Below the pieces are notes generated by a model, which was not told the DNA's origin, searched no databases, and worked only from the letters and a program-made list of their open reading frames with translations. Both the position numbers and the translations under genes were made by a program. 64,000 nt of DNA, taken from the NCBI GenBank assembly GCA_949291345.1, contig CASEVP010000014.1, positions 6,457-70,456 of the forward strand, in the 5' to 3' direction. The stretch comes from an uncultured Ruminococcus sp. (GTDB lineage: Bacteria; Bacillota; Clostridia; Oscillospirales; Ruminococcaceae). Shown here piece after piece: positions 40,756-47,511 of this stretch; position 1 is the stretch's first letter, and each line of letters starts with the position of its first letter.

Positions 40756-41133
40756 TCAGAACACATTCCGAAGCAATGGAATTTCACCCGCTCCAAGATG
40801 TTCCAACCAAATACGTGTCTCTGCCAATTCTGCCTTTAGTTCATCACAGTTTTCCACACGCATGGGATTCAAACGTGCAACCGATACGTCTACCTGCTGC
40901 ACCCGATCCCGCCAAACCAAAATGCTAAAAAGCTTCTCCGATTTTTCCCAATGCGCTTCAAATGTTTCAAAAGGTTTCTGTACTGCCTCCAATGCAGAGG
41001 TTTCCATGGCCTGTTCAATTTGTGAAAGTTCCGACAGCAGCACATTTGTCTCATGATATACATACCATTCAGTCGCAATACTAGACAATACCAGCAACGC
41101 CAGTACAATGATGCCGATTCGAATTCGTGTCAT
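40756..41133 (-). CDS. DUF4363-like protein
   Basis: N-terminal TM, helical body, W...L motif, C-terminal PLLRNVF; overlaps the DUF421 gene. Confidence 0.7.
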   Translation of the reverse strand: MTRIRIGIIVLALLVLSSIATEWYVYHETNVLLSELSQIEQAMETSALEAVQKPFETFEAHWEKSEKLFSILVWRDRVQQVDVSVARLNPMRVENCDELKAELAETRIWLEHLGAGEIPLLRNVF

Positions 41134-41813
41134 GATTTTTTCTCCTGTTCTTTAGGAATAATTGTACAGTTGCCATCTGTATCCCCCAGCATCAAAAACA
41201 CCTGCTCTGCCGTCAATCGATGCTCTGCTAATTTTTGTTCCAGCCAGTTTGAATTTTGTTGGATCATCTCCAGTGCATGCTGCATAATACACCCATCCTG
41301 TATCACAGCAACAGGAGGATCCTGCGAGGGATTTTGTAAAGAAACATCTTTTTGTGTCAACGGCTGATACGAAGATTTTTGGTATACCGAAATGGTGCCA
41401 GTTGTCTCCATAATCGCAAACTGTACCTGACTGATGTCAAAAATCTGGTTTCCTCGCAGAGAAGTCATAATATCATCCACAGACAAACGCAGCTCTTTTA
41501 ATGTCTTTTGCTCAAGCTTGCCATCACGAATGAGTATTTTGGGTCGTCCGGAGATTAGGCGCCGCATCCGCAGGGATTTCAATGTCACACCTGACATGAT
41601 GACTTCATAGCATACCAGTGCCAATATGGGAAGTACACCAATTACCAGAGGAATATCTGGATTTTCCAAGGGCAGTGTAGCAATATTTGAAATTAATATG
41701 GTAATTACCAGCTCTGACGGCTGCAATTCCCCGAGCTGCCGTTTTCCCATCAAACGTATCCCAAAAATAACCACAATGTATAAAATCAGCGAACGCAGCA
41801 AGACGATACTCAT
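41130..41813 (-). CDS. DUF421/YetF-family (spore) membrane protein
   Basis: RLMGKRQLGELQPSELV, GRPKILIRDGK, AIMETTGTISV. Confidence 0.9.
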   Translation of the reverse strand: MSIVLLRSLILYIVVIFGIRLMGKRQLGELQPSELVITILISNIATLPLENPDIPLVIGVLPILALVCYEVIMSGVTLKSLRMRRLISGRPKILIRDGKLEQKTLKELRLSVDDIMTSLRGNQIFDISQVQFAIMETTGTISVYQKSSYQPLTQKDVSLQNPSQDPPVAVIQDGCIMQHALEMIQQNSNWLEQKLAEHRLTAEQVFLMLGDTDGNCTIIPKEQEKKS

Positions 41814-41838
41814 AAAAAACGCCTCCTTCCACACCATC

Positions 41839-41867
41839 TAGTATGGACAAAGGCGTTTCAATTATTC
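41839..41867 (-). promoter_or_regulatory. Putative forespore sigma-G/F promoter
   Basis: GAATA-17 nt-CATACTA upstream of the DUF421 gene. Confidence 0.5.
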
Positions 41868-41915
41868 GACCAGCACCACAGTTGCAAAAACCACCCATTT
41901 CTGAATCAATATCAC

Positions 41916-42410
41916 CTATTTCCCGTCGTTTCCGTTTTCACTGGACACTTGATCGCGTTTTTTAAATACAAATAACTTACTGAAAAGATAATTGGACAGC
42001 ACAATAAAGATTTGCGCACAAATTTTTACCCCATAATAATTCAGACCAAGCCACGTTGCAAAAATCAGCATAATGGCAAGTTCCAGAAAATAAGAAACCA
42101 ATCTTGCCCCATAAAATGAAAGGAATTCAATCCAGAACGCCCTCTTGGAATGCGTCTGACTCTTAAACACATATTTTTTATTGGTAAAAAACGCAAAAGT
42201 CACTGCACATATCCAGGAAAATGTTGTACAGAAAACCGTTGCCACCGCACCTGTCCCCAAAAAATATGCCGGAATAAACTGGGTGATAAACGACACAACC
42301 GTGGTCAATCCGCCAAATATCAAATACAGTATTAGAGCTTCATATCGAAAATACAAATTCCGAAGCGATTTTGGCATGTGATTTGCTAGCCACAATATTA
42401 TTTTTTCCAT
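41916..42410 (-). CDS. GtrA family protein
   Basis: YLIFGGLTT, FAFFTNKKYVF, NYLFSKLFVF. Confidence 0.9.
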   Translation of the reverse strand: MEKIILWLANHMPKSLRNLYFRYEALILYLIFGGLTTVVSFITQFIPAYFLGTGAVATVFCTTFSWICAVTFAFFTNKKYVFKSQTHSKRAFWIEFLSFYGARLVSYFLELAIMLIFATWLGLNYYGVKICAQIFIVLSNYLFSKLFVFKKRDQVSSENGNDGK

Positions 42411-42494
42411 ATTTTACAACCTTTCTCTCCGCAAATCAGCCCATGACTCTAACAAAAGCTTTTTGCGAAAAAACAAACATAATCCCCTCCTCAA

Positions 42495-43424
42495 CTACTT
42501 TTTCTTATACTTAAATAGTATAATTGTTACCAGCGCTGTCAATGCTACTGCTACAACTGTCGGAAACCATGTATGTTCCGCTCCAGGCAGATCGTACGTA
42601 TTCATTCCATAAAAACTAAATACCATTGTAGGAATTGCCAAAATAATGGTAATCATGGTCAAACGCCACATGACAATATTCAGATTATTGGAGATGACCG
42701 AACCGAACGCCTCTACAACACCAGACAAAATATCGGAGTAAATACTCGCCATTTCTTGAGCCTGTTTCAATTCAATTAACACATCTTCCAACAGATCTTG
42801 GTCTTCCTCATAAAGTTTGACCACACGTCCACGTAAGATTTTATTCATTGTAACATCGTTGGATTTTAACGAAGTAGAAAAGTAAATCAGTGATTTTTCT
42901 AATTCCAGCATTTGAATAAGTTCTTGATTTTTCATCGCACCATGCAATTTCCGCTGCATCACGCTGGATGTCTTATCAATTTGTTTCAAGTATACTAGGA
43001 ATGAAGAAGTAATGTTCATCATCAGACGCAGCACAAACTGTGTGCGAAACTGCGTCTGAATATTGCGAATTCTTCCGCTGACAGCATCGTCAATCACTTT
43101 ATTTTCACGCAAAGATATCGTAAAAACATAGTGATCCGTCAAAATGATACCAAGTGGCATGGTGTAGAAAATCAGCGTATCATCCTTCTGTACTTCTGAC
43201 ACTGCTGTATCTACGATAATAAGCGTTTGATTTTCTTCTTGTTCCACACGTGAGGATTCTTCTTCATCCAGTGAAGATTTCAAAAAATCGCTGTCCAGAC
43301 CATAATCTTCAATTAACATTTTGCGTTCCTGTGCAGTCGGATCCACTACAGATATCCAACATCCAGGCGAAATTGCATCAATTTCAATCAATCGGTTTGC
43401 CACCGTCTTATAGTATGAGATCAA
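42495..43424 (-). CDS. corA: CorA-family magnesium transporter
   Basis: DEEESSR, SNNLN, YGMN signature between two C-terminal TMs; TTG start after AAAGGTGG. Confidence 0.93.
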   Translation of the reverse strand: MISYYKTVANRLIEIDAISPGCWISVVDPTAQERKMLIEDYGLDSDFLKSSLDEEESSRVEQEENQTLIIVDTAVSEVQKDDTLIFYTMPLGIILTDHYVFTISLRENKVIDDAVSGRIRNIQTQFRTQFVLRLMMNITSSFLVYLKQIDKTSSVMQRKLHGAMKNQELIQMLELEKSLIYFSTSLKSNDVTMNKILRGRVVKLYEEDQDLLEDVLIELKQAQEMASIYSDILSGVVEAFGSVISNNLNIVMWRLTMITIILAIPTMVFSFYGMNTYDLPGAEHTWFPTVVAVALTALVTIILFKYKKK

Positions 43425-43467
43425 ATCGGATACCACCTTTCCGCAAAGGCAGACCGAATACGCCGCA

Positions 43468-43551
43468 TCAGCTGCCCTTACAAATTATCCATGTGTTTTT
43501 CCGGTTGCCGTACATTACTTTGCATGGCAAGGGATACGGGTCAGCGTTCAT
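43468..43551 (-). CDS. Putative proline-rich leader peptide of corA (27 aa, MgtL-like)
   Basis: AGGAGGT RBS, ATG, MNADPYPLPCKVMYGNRKNTWIICKGS; lies between the corA promoter and corA. Confidence 0.72.
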   Translation of the reverse strand: MNADPYPLPCKVMYGNRKNTWIICKGS

Positions 43552-43605
43552 GCTGCACCTCCTACTCTATCATACGATTTATTCGGCAAATTTGCCGTTC
43601 ATTTT

Positions 43606-43634
43606 ATTATAACAGAAAAAACCGCCTTTGACAA
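43606..43634 (-). promoter_or_regulatory. Sigma-A promoter for the corA leader and corA
   Basis: TTGTCA-17 nt-TATAAT with TG extension; -35 lies inside the inverted repeat AAAAACCGCC...GGCGGTTTTT (43616-43644, probable upstream terminator). Confidence 0.7.
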
Positions 43635-43852
43635 GGCGGTTTTTGTAAATTCTCCATTTTTTCTTATAAATTTTAAGCGATGCCAAACAAGATTTACACC
43701 TTAAAATGCAGTCAATTTTTTCAACAAATAAAGCAAAGGCAACACAGATACCTTGACATACATCAGGAAAACTTCAAACAATGTAGTAGAAAAAACACAA
43801 GTATATACTTTTCAAAAAAAGATCGAGAGTCTTTACACATACAACGTTGCCT

Positions 43853-44617
43853 TTAATCGGTATCCTTGTGAATTTCTTCTCGCAGTCGTTCTTTGATACC
43901 TTCCAAAATAATATTTTTTGCCTCTATCGCCTGTTCTTTTGTTGCTGGAGGAACACCCTTTAACGGGTAATCAATCCCTAAATTCTCATATTTCACTTCA
44001 CCCATAGTATGATACGGCAAAACGTCCAATGCTTTCAAATTATCTAGGTCTGCTAGGAATCTCCCCAGTTGATGCAAATATTTTTCATTCAGAGTATATC
44101 CGGGTACCACGACATGACGAATCCAGACTGGTATCTTTTTTTCCTTCAGATACATGGCAAATTCTAAAATATGCTGATTGCTATGTTTGGTCAGTTTTAT
44201 ATGCTCTTGTTCATCAATATGTTTGATATCCAGCATAACCAAATCTGTCACTGCCATTAGCCGATCAAACTCTGCTCGCTTCTCCGACCGATACAGTATA
44301 CCAGATGTGTCCAAACAAGTATGGATTTTCTTTTTCTTTGCCGCCTCAAACAGTTCGGTCAAAAATTCCATTTGTACCAGCGGTTCACCACCAGTTGCTG
44401 TGATACCGCCTCCCTGCAAAAATTCTTTCACGCCATCGTATTCATCCAAAATAGATTGCACCGTCCGCAGATTACCATCGCCACCACCAATTGTCCACGT
44501 ATCCGGATTATGACAGTAAAGACAGCGCATAGGACATCCCTGATAAAATATAACAAATCGTATACCGGGTCCGTCTACGGTACCGAAACTCTCTGTCGAA
44601 TGTATATGCCCTTTCAT
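43853..44617 (-). CDS. pflA: Pyruvate formate-lyase activating enzyme
   Basis: ESFGTVDGPG, GCPMRCLYCHNPDTW, TGGEP, LPYHTMG. Confidence 0.97.
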   Translation of the reverse strand: MKGHIHSTESFGTVDGPGIRFVIFYQGCPMRCLYCHNPDTWTIGGGDGNLRTVQSILDEYDGVKEFLQGGGITATGGEPLVQMEFLTELFEAAKKKKIHTCLDTSGILYRSEKRAEFDRLMAVTDLVMLDIKHIDEQEHIKLTKHSNQHILEFAMYLKEKKIPVWIRHVVVPGYTLNEKYLHQLGRFLADLDNLKALDVLPYHTMGEVKYENLGIDYPLKGVPPATKEQAIEAKNIILEGIKERLREEIHKDTD

Positions 44618-44731
44618 CTGCTTACCCTCCTTTTTTCATTTGATATGACAATGGGCGCACAGCATCTGTACGCCGTACGCCCACTGCAATCATTCAGCAA
44701 TTGTTATATTTCACACAATTTATTTTTCCCA

Positions 44732-44971
44732 TCAAAGACCAGCATGGAATGTTCTGGAAATGACATCATCTTGCTGTTCCTTTGTCAGCTTAATAAAGTT
44801 TACCGCATAGCCGCTGACACGAATCGTCAGTTGCGGATACTTTTCCGGATGCTGCTGTGCATCCAGCAATGTTTCACGATTCAAAACATTTACATTCAGA
44901 TGATGACCACCTTTTTCAGCATAGCCGTCCAACAATCCTACCAGATTTTCAATTTGCTTTTCGTTTGCCAT
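44732..44971 (-). CDS. Stand-alone glycyl-radical domain of PFL (79 aa; GrcA/YfiD-like)
   Basis: [18 protein letters not shown]...[16 protein letters not shown]; own strong RBS AAAGGAGG. Confidence 0.93.
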
Positions 44972-45028
44972 GATAAACTCCTCCTTTAAGAATTTACAAC
45001 AATAGCTGCATTTTTGAGCAAAAAAGTT

Positions 45029-45238
45029 TTACTCATCTTCTATAAATTCAGTCGGCTGACAACATGCCATGTTTCCTTTTGAGCAATCCATACTCCGATA
45101 AGTCTTTACACTCATGCCGTCACTCATCAGTTCATCTTCTGAAATGGTCAAATGACCGCTGCCATTTTCCATCAGCTTTTCAATCATATCGACCAATTCA
45201 TCAGACTTATCCTGATCTTTCAGTTCATGTTGTGCCAT
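45029..45238 (-). CDS. Small acidic Cys-containing protein inside the pfl operon (69 aa)
   Basis: AAGGAGG RBS; fills the gap between pflB and the radical-domain gene; N-half resembles the radical-domain N-terminus. Confidence 0.82.
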   Translation of the reverse strand: MAQHELKDQDKSDELVDMIEKLMENGSGHLTISEDELMSDGMSVKTYRSMDCSKGNMACCQPTEFIEDE

Positions 45239-45282
45239 GACACTCCGCCTCCTTCCAAAATTTTAAAACCTTTTGCGTTTGA

Positions 45283-47370
45283 TTATTCTTTTTCCATTGC
45301 TTCACGAATGGAGGCAATATCGATATCACCTGCAAATACAGAAGAATCCTTACCTAAAGCATCCGGAATAATGGTAAATGTATTCGAAATGCCATCCTGT
45401 GCATTCTTCCATGGCAGTTTCGCAACAGACGCCATAGATGCTGCTGCACCGTGTGTATCACGACCATGCATCGGGTTTGCACCAGGAGCCAACGGCTGAC
45501 CCTTCTTACGACCATCCGGTGTGTTACCGGTCTTTTTACCGTATACTACGTTGGAAGTAATAGTCAGGATAGAAGTTGTCGGAACACCGTTTCTATAGCA
45601 ATAATTGCTGCGGATCATATCCATAAACTTATTCAGGATTTCTACTGCAATGCTGTCTACACGGTCATCATTGTTGCCATACTTCGGGAAATCGCCTTCA
45701 ACTTCAAAGTCTACTACTACACCATATTCATCACGAATGCACTTTACCTTTGCATACTTAATTGCAGACAAGGAATCAGCAACAACGGACATACCAGCGA
45801 TACCAGTTGCAAAGTAGCGCTTGACATCTCTATCATGCAGTGCCATTTGCAATGCTTCATAACAATATTTATCGTGCATATAGTGAATGCAGTTGAGCGT
45901 ATCTACATATAGCTTTGCCAGCCATTCCATCATATCGATGTACTTTTCCATTACATCGTCATAATCCAGATAATCGCCTTCTACTTTGCGATACTTTGGA
46001 CCCACCTGATTATGCTTGCCGGTCTTTGCATCGATTCTTTCATCAACACCGCCGTTAATTGCATACAGCAAGCACTTCGCAAGATTTGCACGAGCACCAA
46101 AGAATTGCATTTCCTTACCAACACGCATAGAAGATACACAACAAGCAATCGCATAATCATCGCCGTGTGTCACACGCATCAAGTCATCGTTTTCGTACTG
46201 GAATGAAGAGGTGTTGATAGACAACTTTGCACAATAATGTTTAAACGCTGTCGGCAATCTCTTAGACCACAGTACAGTCAGGTTCGGCTCCGGAGCAGTA
46301 CCTAGGTTTTCCAGTGTATGCAGATAACGGAAACTGGTCTTAGTAACCAGCGTTCTGCCATCGATACCCATACCGCCGATAGATTCAGTTACCCACTGCG
46401 GATCACCGGAGAACAATGCGTTGTATTCAGGTGTTCTAGCAAACTTTACCATACGCAGCTTCATAATAAAGTGGTCAATATATTCCTGTGCCTGTTCTTC
46501 TGTCAAAATGCCATTTTCTAGGTCACGCTGAATATAGATATCCAAGAATGTGGAAGTACGACCGAGGCTCATTGCTGCACCGTTCTGATCCTTTACTGCT
46601 GCAAGATATGCGAAATATGTCCACTGGATTGCTTCCTTCGCATTGGCAGCCGGCTTAGAAATATCATATCCATACTTGGAAGCCATGTTCTTCAAAGCCT
46701 TCAGTGCCTTAATCTGATCTGCCAATTCTTCACGCAAACGGATCTTTTCTTCTGTCATCGTACCACAAACTGTAGACTTCTGATACTCCTTGTCTGCAAT
46801 CAGACGATCTACACCATACAATGCAACACGACGATAATCACCAATAATACGACCACGGCCATACGCATCCGGCAAACCAGTGATAATTGCATTATGACGA
46901 GCAGAACGCATCTCTGGTGTATATACATCAAATACACCCTCGTTGTGTGTCTTTCTATAGTGCTTGAAAATGTAACTAATCTCCGGATCTACTTCATAGC
47001 CATAAGACTTACATGCCTCTTCTGCCATACGGATACCGCCAAACGGCTGCAACGAACGCTTGAGAGGCTTATCTGTCTGCAAACCAACGATCTGCTCCAG
47101 ATCTTTGTGAATATAGCCTGCATCATGTGAATCTACTGTAGATACGATTTTGGTGTCCATATCCAGGACGCCGCCATTTTCACGTTCCTGCTTAAACAGC
47201 TCCATTACTTCGTTCCACAGTGTCTTTGTTGCTTCTGTCGGTCCTGCCAGAAAACTCTCATCGCCCTCATACGGGGTATAGTTCTTCTGAATAAAATCCC
47301 GTACGTCGATCGACTTTTCCCATGCACCGCCGACGAAACCTTCCCATGCGTTTGCCATAGTATCTGCCAT
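45283..47370 (-). CDS. pflB: Pyruvate formate-lyase lacking the C-terminal glycyl-radical domain
   Basis: [23 protein letters not shown], active-site IACCVS, PGANP, DGISNT; stops 20 aa after ALGKD with no RVSGY. Confidence 0.95.
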
Positions 47371-47511
47371 TTTTTTAATCTCCCCTTTGCTGGAAATCCA
47401 GCGGAATTTATATTGGATTTTTTGCAAATCACAGCTGACTTTTAACAGAAAACCGCATCACATTTCTGTCGCTTTTTTTCTTATCTTCCAGCTGTGTTTT
47501 GATCTGTCTTA

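Follow-up and report, generated by a model that had tools for sequence, protein, structure and literature searches.

What is the function of the short open reading frame (ORF) that precedes a corA gene in an uncultured Ruminococcus sp., and does the RNA around it control how much of the transporter is made? The gene lies in a stretch of 64,000 nucleotides (assembly GCA_949291345.1, contig CASEVP010000014.1, positions 6,457 to 70,456), which is referred to here as the window. An earlier reading of this DNA (the original prediction) held that four RNA segments form a switch, coupled to translation of the leader ORF, with the Shine-Dalgarno (SD) sequence of corA as its output. Our results support that proposal in everything but the identity given to segment 1. 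The leader and switch element is real and conserved, and we consider it probable, at roughly 65%, that the conserved leader peptide and the predicted four-segment switch set CorA translation by the progress of the ribosome, with low Mg2+ as the presumed signal.

The product of the gene matches Pfam PF01544 (E 2e-47; 162 bits, cut-off 27) and its translation contains FYGMN, with the GMN signature; against TIGR00383 it scored 110.9 bits (E 7.5e-32), the equivalog cut-off being 200.75. Records named Ruminococcus callidus contain CorA orthologues that are about 90% identical and are preceded by the same leader. Eleven sequencing runs were listed, all in the form of contigs, and four were compared: contigs from two of them span the whole element and show no difference from the window there, and one RNA run yielded nothing. 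The locus is made up of the following parts:

43606..43634, minus strand: predicted sigma-70-type promoter (TTGTCA, 17 nt, TG-TATAAT), called from 11/12 consensus matches only
43557..43563, minus strand: strong SD of the leader ORF, AGGAGGU, seen in the sequence, with GGAGG conserved throughout the genus alignment
43538..43558, minus strand: revised segment 1, composed of the SD-AUG spacer, the AUG and codons 2-5, with its core GCUGACCC at 43545-43538; predicted partner of segment 2 and of the linker behind segment 2
43468..43551, minus strand: leader ORF of 27 aa with the N-terminus MNADPYPLP, defined by the ORF and an alignment of 34 loci
43527..43533, minus strand: segment 1 of the original prediction, CCCUUGC, leader codons 7-9; clade-limited and at most an auxiliary pairing
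43460..43481, minus strand: segment 2, formed by the last leader codons (43481-43471) and an extension over the stop codon (43469-43460); it includes GUAAGGG (43481-43475) and AAGGGCAG (43479-43472)
43443..43457, minus strand: segment 3, the anti-SD, with its core CUGCCUUU at 43452-43445
43426..43440, minus strand: segment 4, the corA SD AAAGGUGG (43440-43433) and the closing arm of the 3:4 hairpin
43457-43426, minus strand: 3:4 hairpin, ending one base before the UUG at 43424
42495..43424, minus strand: gene for a CorA-family transporter of 309 aa with a UUG start (Pfam PF01544, GMN signature)

A check of the sequence found all four segments named in the original prediction at their minus-strand places, once each, and the hairpin that covers the corA SD does end one base upstream of the UUG start. 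The segment at codons 7-9 (43533-43527) also belongs to a predicted hairpin within the leader ORF. The element forms the 5′ leader of corA, preceded by a promoter-like site and a terminator-like hairpin; it is located neither between mgtC and mgtB nor before mgtB. The -35 box of the predicted promoter lies inside the loop of the terminator-like pflA hairpin (43644-43617) upstream, an overlap shared by several of the close relatives (L003, L006 and L011 among them). Upstream of pflA there is a 714-aa pyruvate formate-lyase-like ORF (45283-47427, minus strand), which is followed by a separate 79-aa glycyl-radical-domain-like ORF (44732-44971, minus strand). Downstream of corA, genes of the GtrA family, DUF421 and DUF4363 (40756-42410, minus strand) follow on the same strand after a gap of 84 nt.

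The leader peptide was compared within the genus. Each of the 36 relatives searched has a corA orthologue, and 33 of them have an M[NR]ADPYP leader together with segments 2-4, which with the window gives 34 loci. The locus of L020 was lost to a contig end. In L036 and L037 a divergent corA (60-62%) is accompanied by neither leader nor hairpin, and a promoter-like site is present about 30 nt ahead of the corA start; it is likely that corA of these two is unregulated at the level of the leader. Residues A3-D4-P5-Y6-P7 are invariant in all 34 loci; the tail of the leader is variable, Pro9 being retained in merely 10 of the 34, and its length ranges from 13 to 82 aa. An in-frame stop more than 18 nt ahead of segment 2 was found at 0/34 loci, compared with 57/68 for the other frames (32/68 when early stops were counted after codon 7), the 18-nt limit and the peptide motif having been defined post hoc on data already seen. 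The leader region of L002 (from 307 to 44 nt before corA) exceeds that of its closest relatives by some 165-180 nt, which extends the ORF to 82 codons, and its stop still falls 6 nt ahead of segment 2, so that this locus is a natural test of the geometry. L022 and L095 have no leader stop any more, and their ORFs, of 50 and 62 codons, overrun the corA start in a different frame; similar overlaps past the corA start occur in L189, L192, L193, L196, L203 and L233.

Neither Pfam nor NCBIfam gave a match to the leader peptide. A search of window positions 41000-46000 against Rfam, with E up to 1, returned no relevant leader match; there were three chance matches on the terminator hairpin, far below the gathering score. 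One explanation of the conservation would be that the RNA itself binds Mg2+ in the manner of a riboswitch and that the ORF arose incidentally from sequence retained for pairing. This possibility is consistent with the observation that leader codons 2-4, which lie within helix 1:2, are nearly fixed at the nucleotide level. However, all four Pro codons are used at position 5, both Asp codons and both Glu codons occur at the acidic position, and the reading frame of the leader stays open although the sequence between the segments diverges. Together with the absence of an Rfam family that matches the leader, these observations leave us giving almost no credence to a direct RNA sensor at this locus.

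The evidence for the RNA part of the switch is comparative. The check on covariation among orthologues that came with the original prediction bore out helices 2:3 and 3:4, both of which are conserved with two-sided changes across the 34 loci. Counted on a MAFFT alignment that was not fitted to the structure, helix 3:4 has 84.3% of 439 cells paired, with two-sided change at 6 of 13 pairs (slid controls 40-60% paired), and helix 2:3 has 89.0% of 272 cells paired, with two-sided change at 4 of 8 pairs (slid controls 36-62%). For both helices, the percentage and cell measures were better than 500/500 shuffles. The number of pairs with two-sided change was not above that in the shuffles (164/500 for 3:4, 237/500 for 2:3) and the sequences compared are kin, so the covariation evidence for these two helices is good but not formal; segment 4, moreover, is conserved because it is an SD. 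Taken alone, the whole leader of the window folds modestly better than shuffles (z -1.87; 8/200 equally good), and the case against chance therefore rests on the comparison.

The identity of segment 1 had to be revised. The original prediction placed it at the codons for Pro7-Leu8-Pro9, and base-by-base pairing of these with GUAAGGG is possible. However, at least 6 of the 7 pairs are kept in only 11/33 loci, all in the nearest clade, and in the window the state that combines this 1:2 register with 3:4 lies 8.2 kcal/mol above 2:3, for which reasons it was rejected as the main upstream helix. The idea that segment 1 is dispensable was rejected as well, since the start region of the leader pairs with segment 2 across loci. 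By sequence comparison, segment 2 has its conserved partner in the spacer and codons 1-5, which puts segment 1 about 12 nt further upstream and includes the AUG. With L015 omitted as an outlier, the spacer and codons 1-5 outpair codons 6-14 for the segment-2 region in 33/33 loci. The median duplex is -22.7 kcal/mol for the revised segment 1 versus -9.8 kcal/mol for codons 6-14, and z is below -2 in 28/33 loci versus 1/33; own-species segment 1 partners give -22.5 kcal/mol versus -17.4 kcal/mol for foreign partners. The revised helix is formed in the nascent-RNA fold of 31/33 loci, a count to be read with the tendency of per-sequence folding to favour pairing. In the window, a transcript that has not yet reached segment 3 has this helix as its minimum-energy fold, and the state in which the leader start region holds segment 2 lies 3.0 kcal/mol above 2:3. 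The wobble position of Ala3 pairs as U-A, A-U or G-C and that of Asp4 as C-G or U-A, and alternative pair types are also found in the non-coding spacer. Because the whole-leader alignment A2 puts segment 2 out of register, the 1:2 pairs were counted by script instead; the fixed-register core has 113 of 136 paired, as opposed to 12-39 when slid. At the level of sequence, then, the comparison demonstrates that the leader ORF exists, that some of its residues never vary, that it extends as far as segment 2 and that the strands of the three helices are complementary.

The three RNA states themselves are predictions, for which the ribosome was modelled as a 30-nt footprint that masks the RNA. Naked RNA is predicted to be in 3:4 in 31/34 loci, and its segment 2 to be paired with the first codons of the leader in 30/34. 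A ribosome at the end of the leader likewise leaves 3:4 in 31/34 loci. With the ribosome at codon 5, 2:3 is predicted in 15/34 loci and 3:4 persists in 18/34 at equilibrium, and a clean flip of states is seen in 14/34; the dominance of 3:4 at codon 5 in 18 of the 34 loci implies that the effect would be graded or kinetic in many of them. The median cost of opening the corA SD across the 34 loci is 7.7 kcal/mol in naked RNA, 4.4 with the ribosome at codon 5, 8.7 with the ribosome at the end and 8.1 with segment 2 scrambled. Opening at codon 5 is cheaper than in naked RNA in 24/34 loci, than at the end in 30/34 and than with segment 2 scrambled in 26/34. Of the 50 order-level loci with a leader that are described below, 33 have an SD that becomes easier to open on masking and one has an SD that becomes harder to open. 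When 30 nt upstream of 150 random genes were masked, opening became at least 1 kcal/mol easier in 21 and harder in 11, and masking eased 14/45 of the random genes with a closed SD; since masking eases random genes too, the 24/34 and the 33/50 carry a non-zero background. Overall, the folding predictions for the 34 loci support the proposed polarity, in which an early ribosome means an open SD and a finished ribosome a closed one.

For the window itself, constrained folding, a check named with the original prediction, predicts a codon-dependent change between 2:3 and 3:4 and puts the originally proposed 1:2 plus 3:4 state at the 8.2 kcal/mol given above. The predicted probability of 3:4 is at most 0.02 with the ribosome at codons 1-12 and at least 0.6 from codon 16, in all nine settings. 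Its naked RNA favours 2:3 by 2.4-3.0 kcal/mol, a default found in only 3/34 loci. SD opening in the window costs 2.9 kcal/mol with a ribosome at codon 5 versus 2.4 in naked RNA, i.e. it is not easier, and the SD is about half unpaired even in the 2:3 state.

The default of the window raises a rival explanation with three segments, in which 2:3 is the ON state by default, translation is aborted at D-P at low Mg2+, completed translation masks segment 2 and turns the gene off, and segment 1 is incidental. The naked RNA of the window, which folds as 2:3, fits such a drop-off mechanism, and the leader ORF reaches segment 2 in every locus. There is also a precedent in MgtL, the translation of which aborts within MEPDPT, that is inside its first six residues, and does so more at low Mg2+, according to the available part of the preprint (bioRxiv 10.1101/2021.02.02.429294). 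However, helix 1:2 is conserved, and in most relatives the predicted default is OFF, with segment 2 paired to the first codons of the leader. A ribosome that departed would leave corA off in those relatives; simple drop-off would therefore have the wrong sign, unless new ribosomes started at the strong SD so quickly that segment 1 stayed covered. We think this explanation unlikely, and its wrong sign is the reason for which stalling or cycling is preferred.

In the preferred four-segment reading, segment 2 would be held by the leader start region (1:2) when no ribosome is present, and would be covered when a ribosome nears the end of the ORF. With segment 2 unavailable, segment 3 would pair with the corA SD (3:4), which is the OFF state. 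A ribosome that lags, stalls or cycles between initiation and abortion at Asp4-Pro5-Tyr6-Pro7 would cover segment 1 and leave segment 2 free, whereupon 2:3 could form and the corA SD would be easier to open, the ON state. By analogy with MgtL and MgtQ, D-P would slow or destabilise the ribosome at low Mg2+, and Mg2+ would relieve the effect.

As for the output of the switch, translational attenuation through the corA SD is the best reading of the models. The switch might instead act on transcription or mRNA stability, by pausing, cleavage or a non-canonical terminator, with SD occlusion as a secondary effect. An untranslated corA message would decay faster too. MgtL and CorL, the leaders of mgtA and of enterobacterial corA, act through Rho, according to the accessible portion of PMC11552253. 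Here, however, a site scan found no terminator-like site between the leader and corA, in agreement with the absence of a U-tract terminator noted originally, and segment 3 pairs directly with the corA SD. In addition, rho was over the cut-off in 0/6 genomes, namely the source genome, which is 80% complete, and five relatives that are 98-99% complete. It is therefore very improbable, in our view, that transcription or mRNA stability is the primary target, and we retain occlusion of the SD as the output.

Similar leaders occur beyond the genus. The order-level set consisted of 68 corA loci: 60 of 91 corA matches, seven from a search for corA orthologues, and L046, which itself came from a leader-pattern search. 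An SD-led M-x(1,2)-[DE]-P leader is present at 50/68 of these loci versus 6/1123 genes of the source genome, one of the six being the corA locus of the window. The acidic-proline motif has [DE]-P at codons 3-5, and outside the genus nothing more than [DE]-P is retained, without consecutive prolines. At class level, M-x(1,2)-[DE]-P was found in 10 of the best 29 of 61 corA matches, mostly as MDxDP. An MDADPYP leader is located upstream of mgtE in L109 and L116. A genome-wide scan for the leader pattern yielded 101 loci, of which 37 were tied to corA by tblastn and two to mgtE; most of the others, which lie inside long ORFs of unrelated taxa, were treated as chance. The leader is present in L132 and L143, the loci of which are incomplete. 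Among the best 30 order-level mgtE loci, one of which was incomplete and was dropped, 18/29 have leaders of the MDAxGSS type. MDAxGSS or G-R-S leaders are seen at the mgtE loci L146-L175 and in many of the corA leaders L177-L236, and their serine is very often AGU, which hints at a constraint at the codon or RNA level.

The regulatory context of these genes differs between lineages. The M-box (RF00380) was found neither in the source genome (80% complete) nor in any of five near-complete relatives. No mgtE was found in the source genome at that completeness, and an MgtA/B-type ATPase was over the cut-off in 0/5 genomes (the source genome and four near-complete relatives). Elsewhere, M-boxes lie upstream of orthologous corA in 4/20 loci scanned and upstream of mgtE in 4/20, and an M-box and a leader occur in tandem in five cases (mgtE in L146, L150 and L155; corA in L039 and L261). 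Rfam searches of 20 + 20 other loci returned M-boxes and tRNAs only.

This distribution bears on whether Mg2+ is the signal. The same switch could respond to charged tRNA-Pro, to the supply of EF-P or to general translation stress, any of which might set the speed at P5/P7. Within the genus, P5 and P7 never change although their codons vary synonymously, EF-P is present in 5/5 genomes checked, and CorA of the window falls below the TIGR00383 cut-off. MgtP, moreover, responds to charged tRNA-Pro, as is stated in the part of PMC8092293 available to us. All of this would fit such an input, but outside the genus it is [DE]-P alone that is conserved, and consecutive prolines are absent. The motif is, furthermore, linked to both corA and mgtE, which encode two unrelated Mg2+ channels, and orthologous genes carry M-boxes. 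An input other than Mg2+ is thus decidedly unlikely, and the same genomic context supports Mg2+ as the presumed signal shared by the corA and mgtE leaders. On a wider view, we tentatively raise the possibility, short of calling it probable, that the Clostridia have a class-wide, Rho-independent, ribosome-based Mg2+ sensor, in which M-x-x-[DE]-P/MDAxGSS leaders and SD-hiding switches act on CorA and MgtE and either replace the M-box or are stacked behind it. On that view, given a default of OFF and a 1:2 helix that buries the leader start, a single Asp-Pro would need to hold the ribosome at low Mg2+ and not eject it, a behaviour different from the abortion described for MgtL.

The element resembles MgtQ and MgtL in its working but differs from each by location, output or homology. 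The contrast that had been drawn with the Rho-dependent mgtL-mgtA system is correct, yet the translational output is not unprecedented, because Salmonella mgtQ-mgtB has one (Choi et al. 2021, PMC8092293). As described in the accessible text of that paper, 1:2 and 3:4 alternate with 2:3, 3:4 hides the mgtB ribosome-binding site (RBS), the effect is on translational and not on transcriptional fusions, and the acidic codons are needed; the mgtQ mutants were tested at low Mg2+, and the Mg2+ response of the switch itself was not isolated. On the same partial text, both systems have a short SD-led ORF over stem 1, encoding an acidic residue near the start as well as a proline, and the same 1:2/3:4 versus 2:3 logic, with the RBS of a Mg2+ transporter in 3:4 (computational in our case). 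In both, a ribosome in region 1 favours 2:3, and poor translation of the ORF raises translation of the transporter (as predicted here). In contrast, MgtQ has 8 aa, is encoded between genes of mgtCBRU, covers no stem but stem 1 and acts on a P-type ATPase, whereas the clostridial leader has 13-82 aa, is located in a 5′ leader, extends to segment 2 and has its start codon within 1:2, and its targets are CorA and MgtE rather than MgtB. Since the clostridial ORF runs to segment 2, completion of translation would itself mask that segment.

MgtL acts through a Mg2+-dependent destabilisation or stalling of the ribosome that is sensitive to bL31. MgtL of E. coli and Salmonella, as far as the available parts of the sources describe it, shares with the clostridial leader an Asp-Pro at codons 4-5, a position before the gene of a Mg2+ importer, alternative leader structures, and an inverse relation between leader translation and gene expression, which for the clostridial leader is predicted. 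In the same sources MgtL has EPDP, with two acidic residues, compared with a single one in the clostridial genus leader, and its output is Rho-dependent termination, where the clostridial output would be an SD-hiding hairpin in genomes in which rho was not found (six examined). MgtL precedes mgtA, whereas the clostridial leader precedes corA and has no match in Rfam, Pfam or NCBIfam. CorL is alike in that a Mg2+-responsive upstream ORF is coupled to control of the same transporter family, but it is Rho-dependent, unlike the clostridial leader (PMC11552253, available portion). The 'corA motif' of Stav et al. 2019 is, in the part of PMC6429828 available, reported only from Gammaproteobacteria and metagenomes; the text of its supplement contains the gammaproteobacterial motif only, and nothing was found in the supplement of Brewer 2021. 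The leader of PMC13009471 is, according to the accessible part of that paper, an arginine-sensing one. In Gram-positive bacteria it is the M-box (ykoK, RF00380) that has been described as controlling corA, mgtE and mgtA in response to Mg2+, according to the available text of PMC4072509. The M-box differs in that its RNA senses Mg2+ directly and in most cases is coupled to a terminator; it was not found in the source genome or five relatives, and in some other Clostridia it stands in tandem, upstream of a similar acidic leader. Our literature search, from the scope of which most subscription papers were excluded, found no description of a Gram-positive leader of this kind.

Control of Mg2+ uptake has so far been described for the M-box in Gram-positive bacteria and for leader peptides in enterobacteria. 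Our results suggest that a common gut lineage without a detected M-box or rho would gauge Mg2+ by means of the ribosome and respond at the level of translation alone. Natural variants of the element have leaders of 13-82 codons, a default of ON or OFF, and a position alone or behind an M-box. Short, rich in such variants and without a Rho step, it would be a clean system in which to distinguish stalling from drop-off at acidic-proline leaders.
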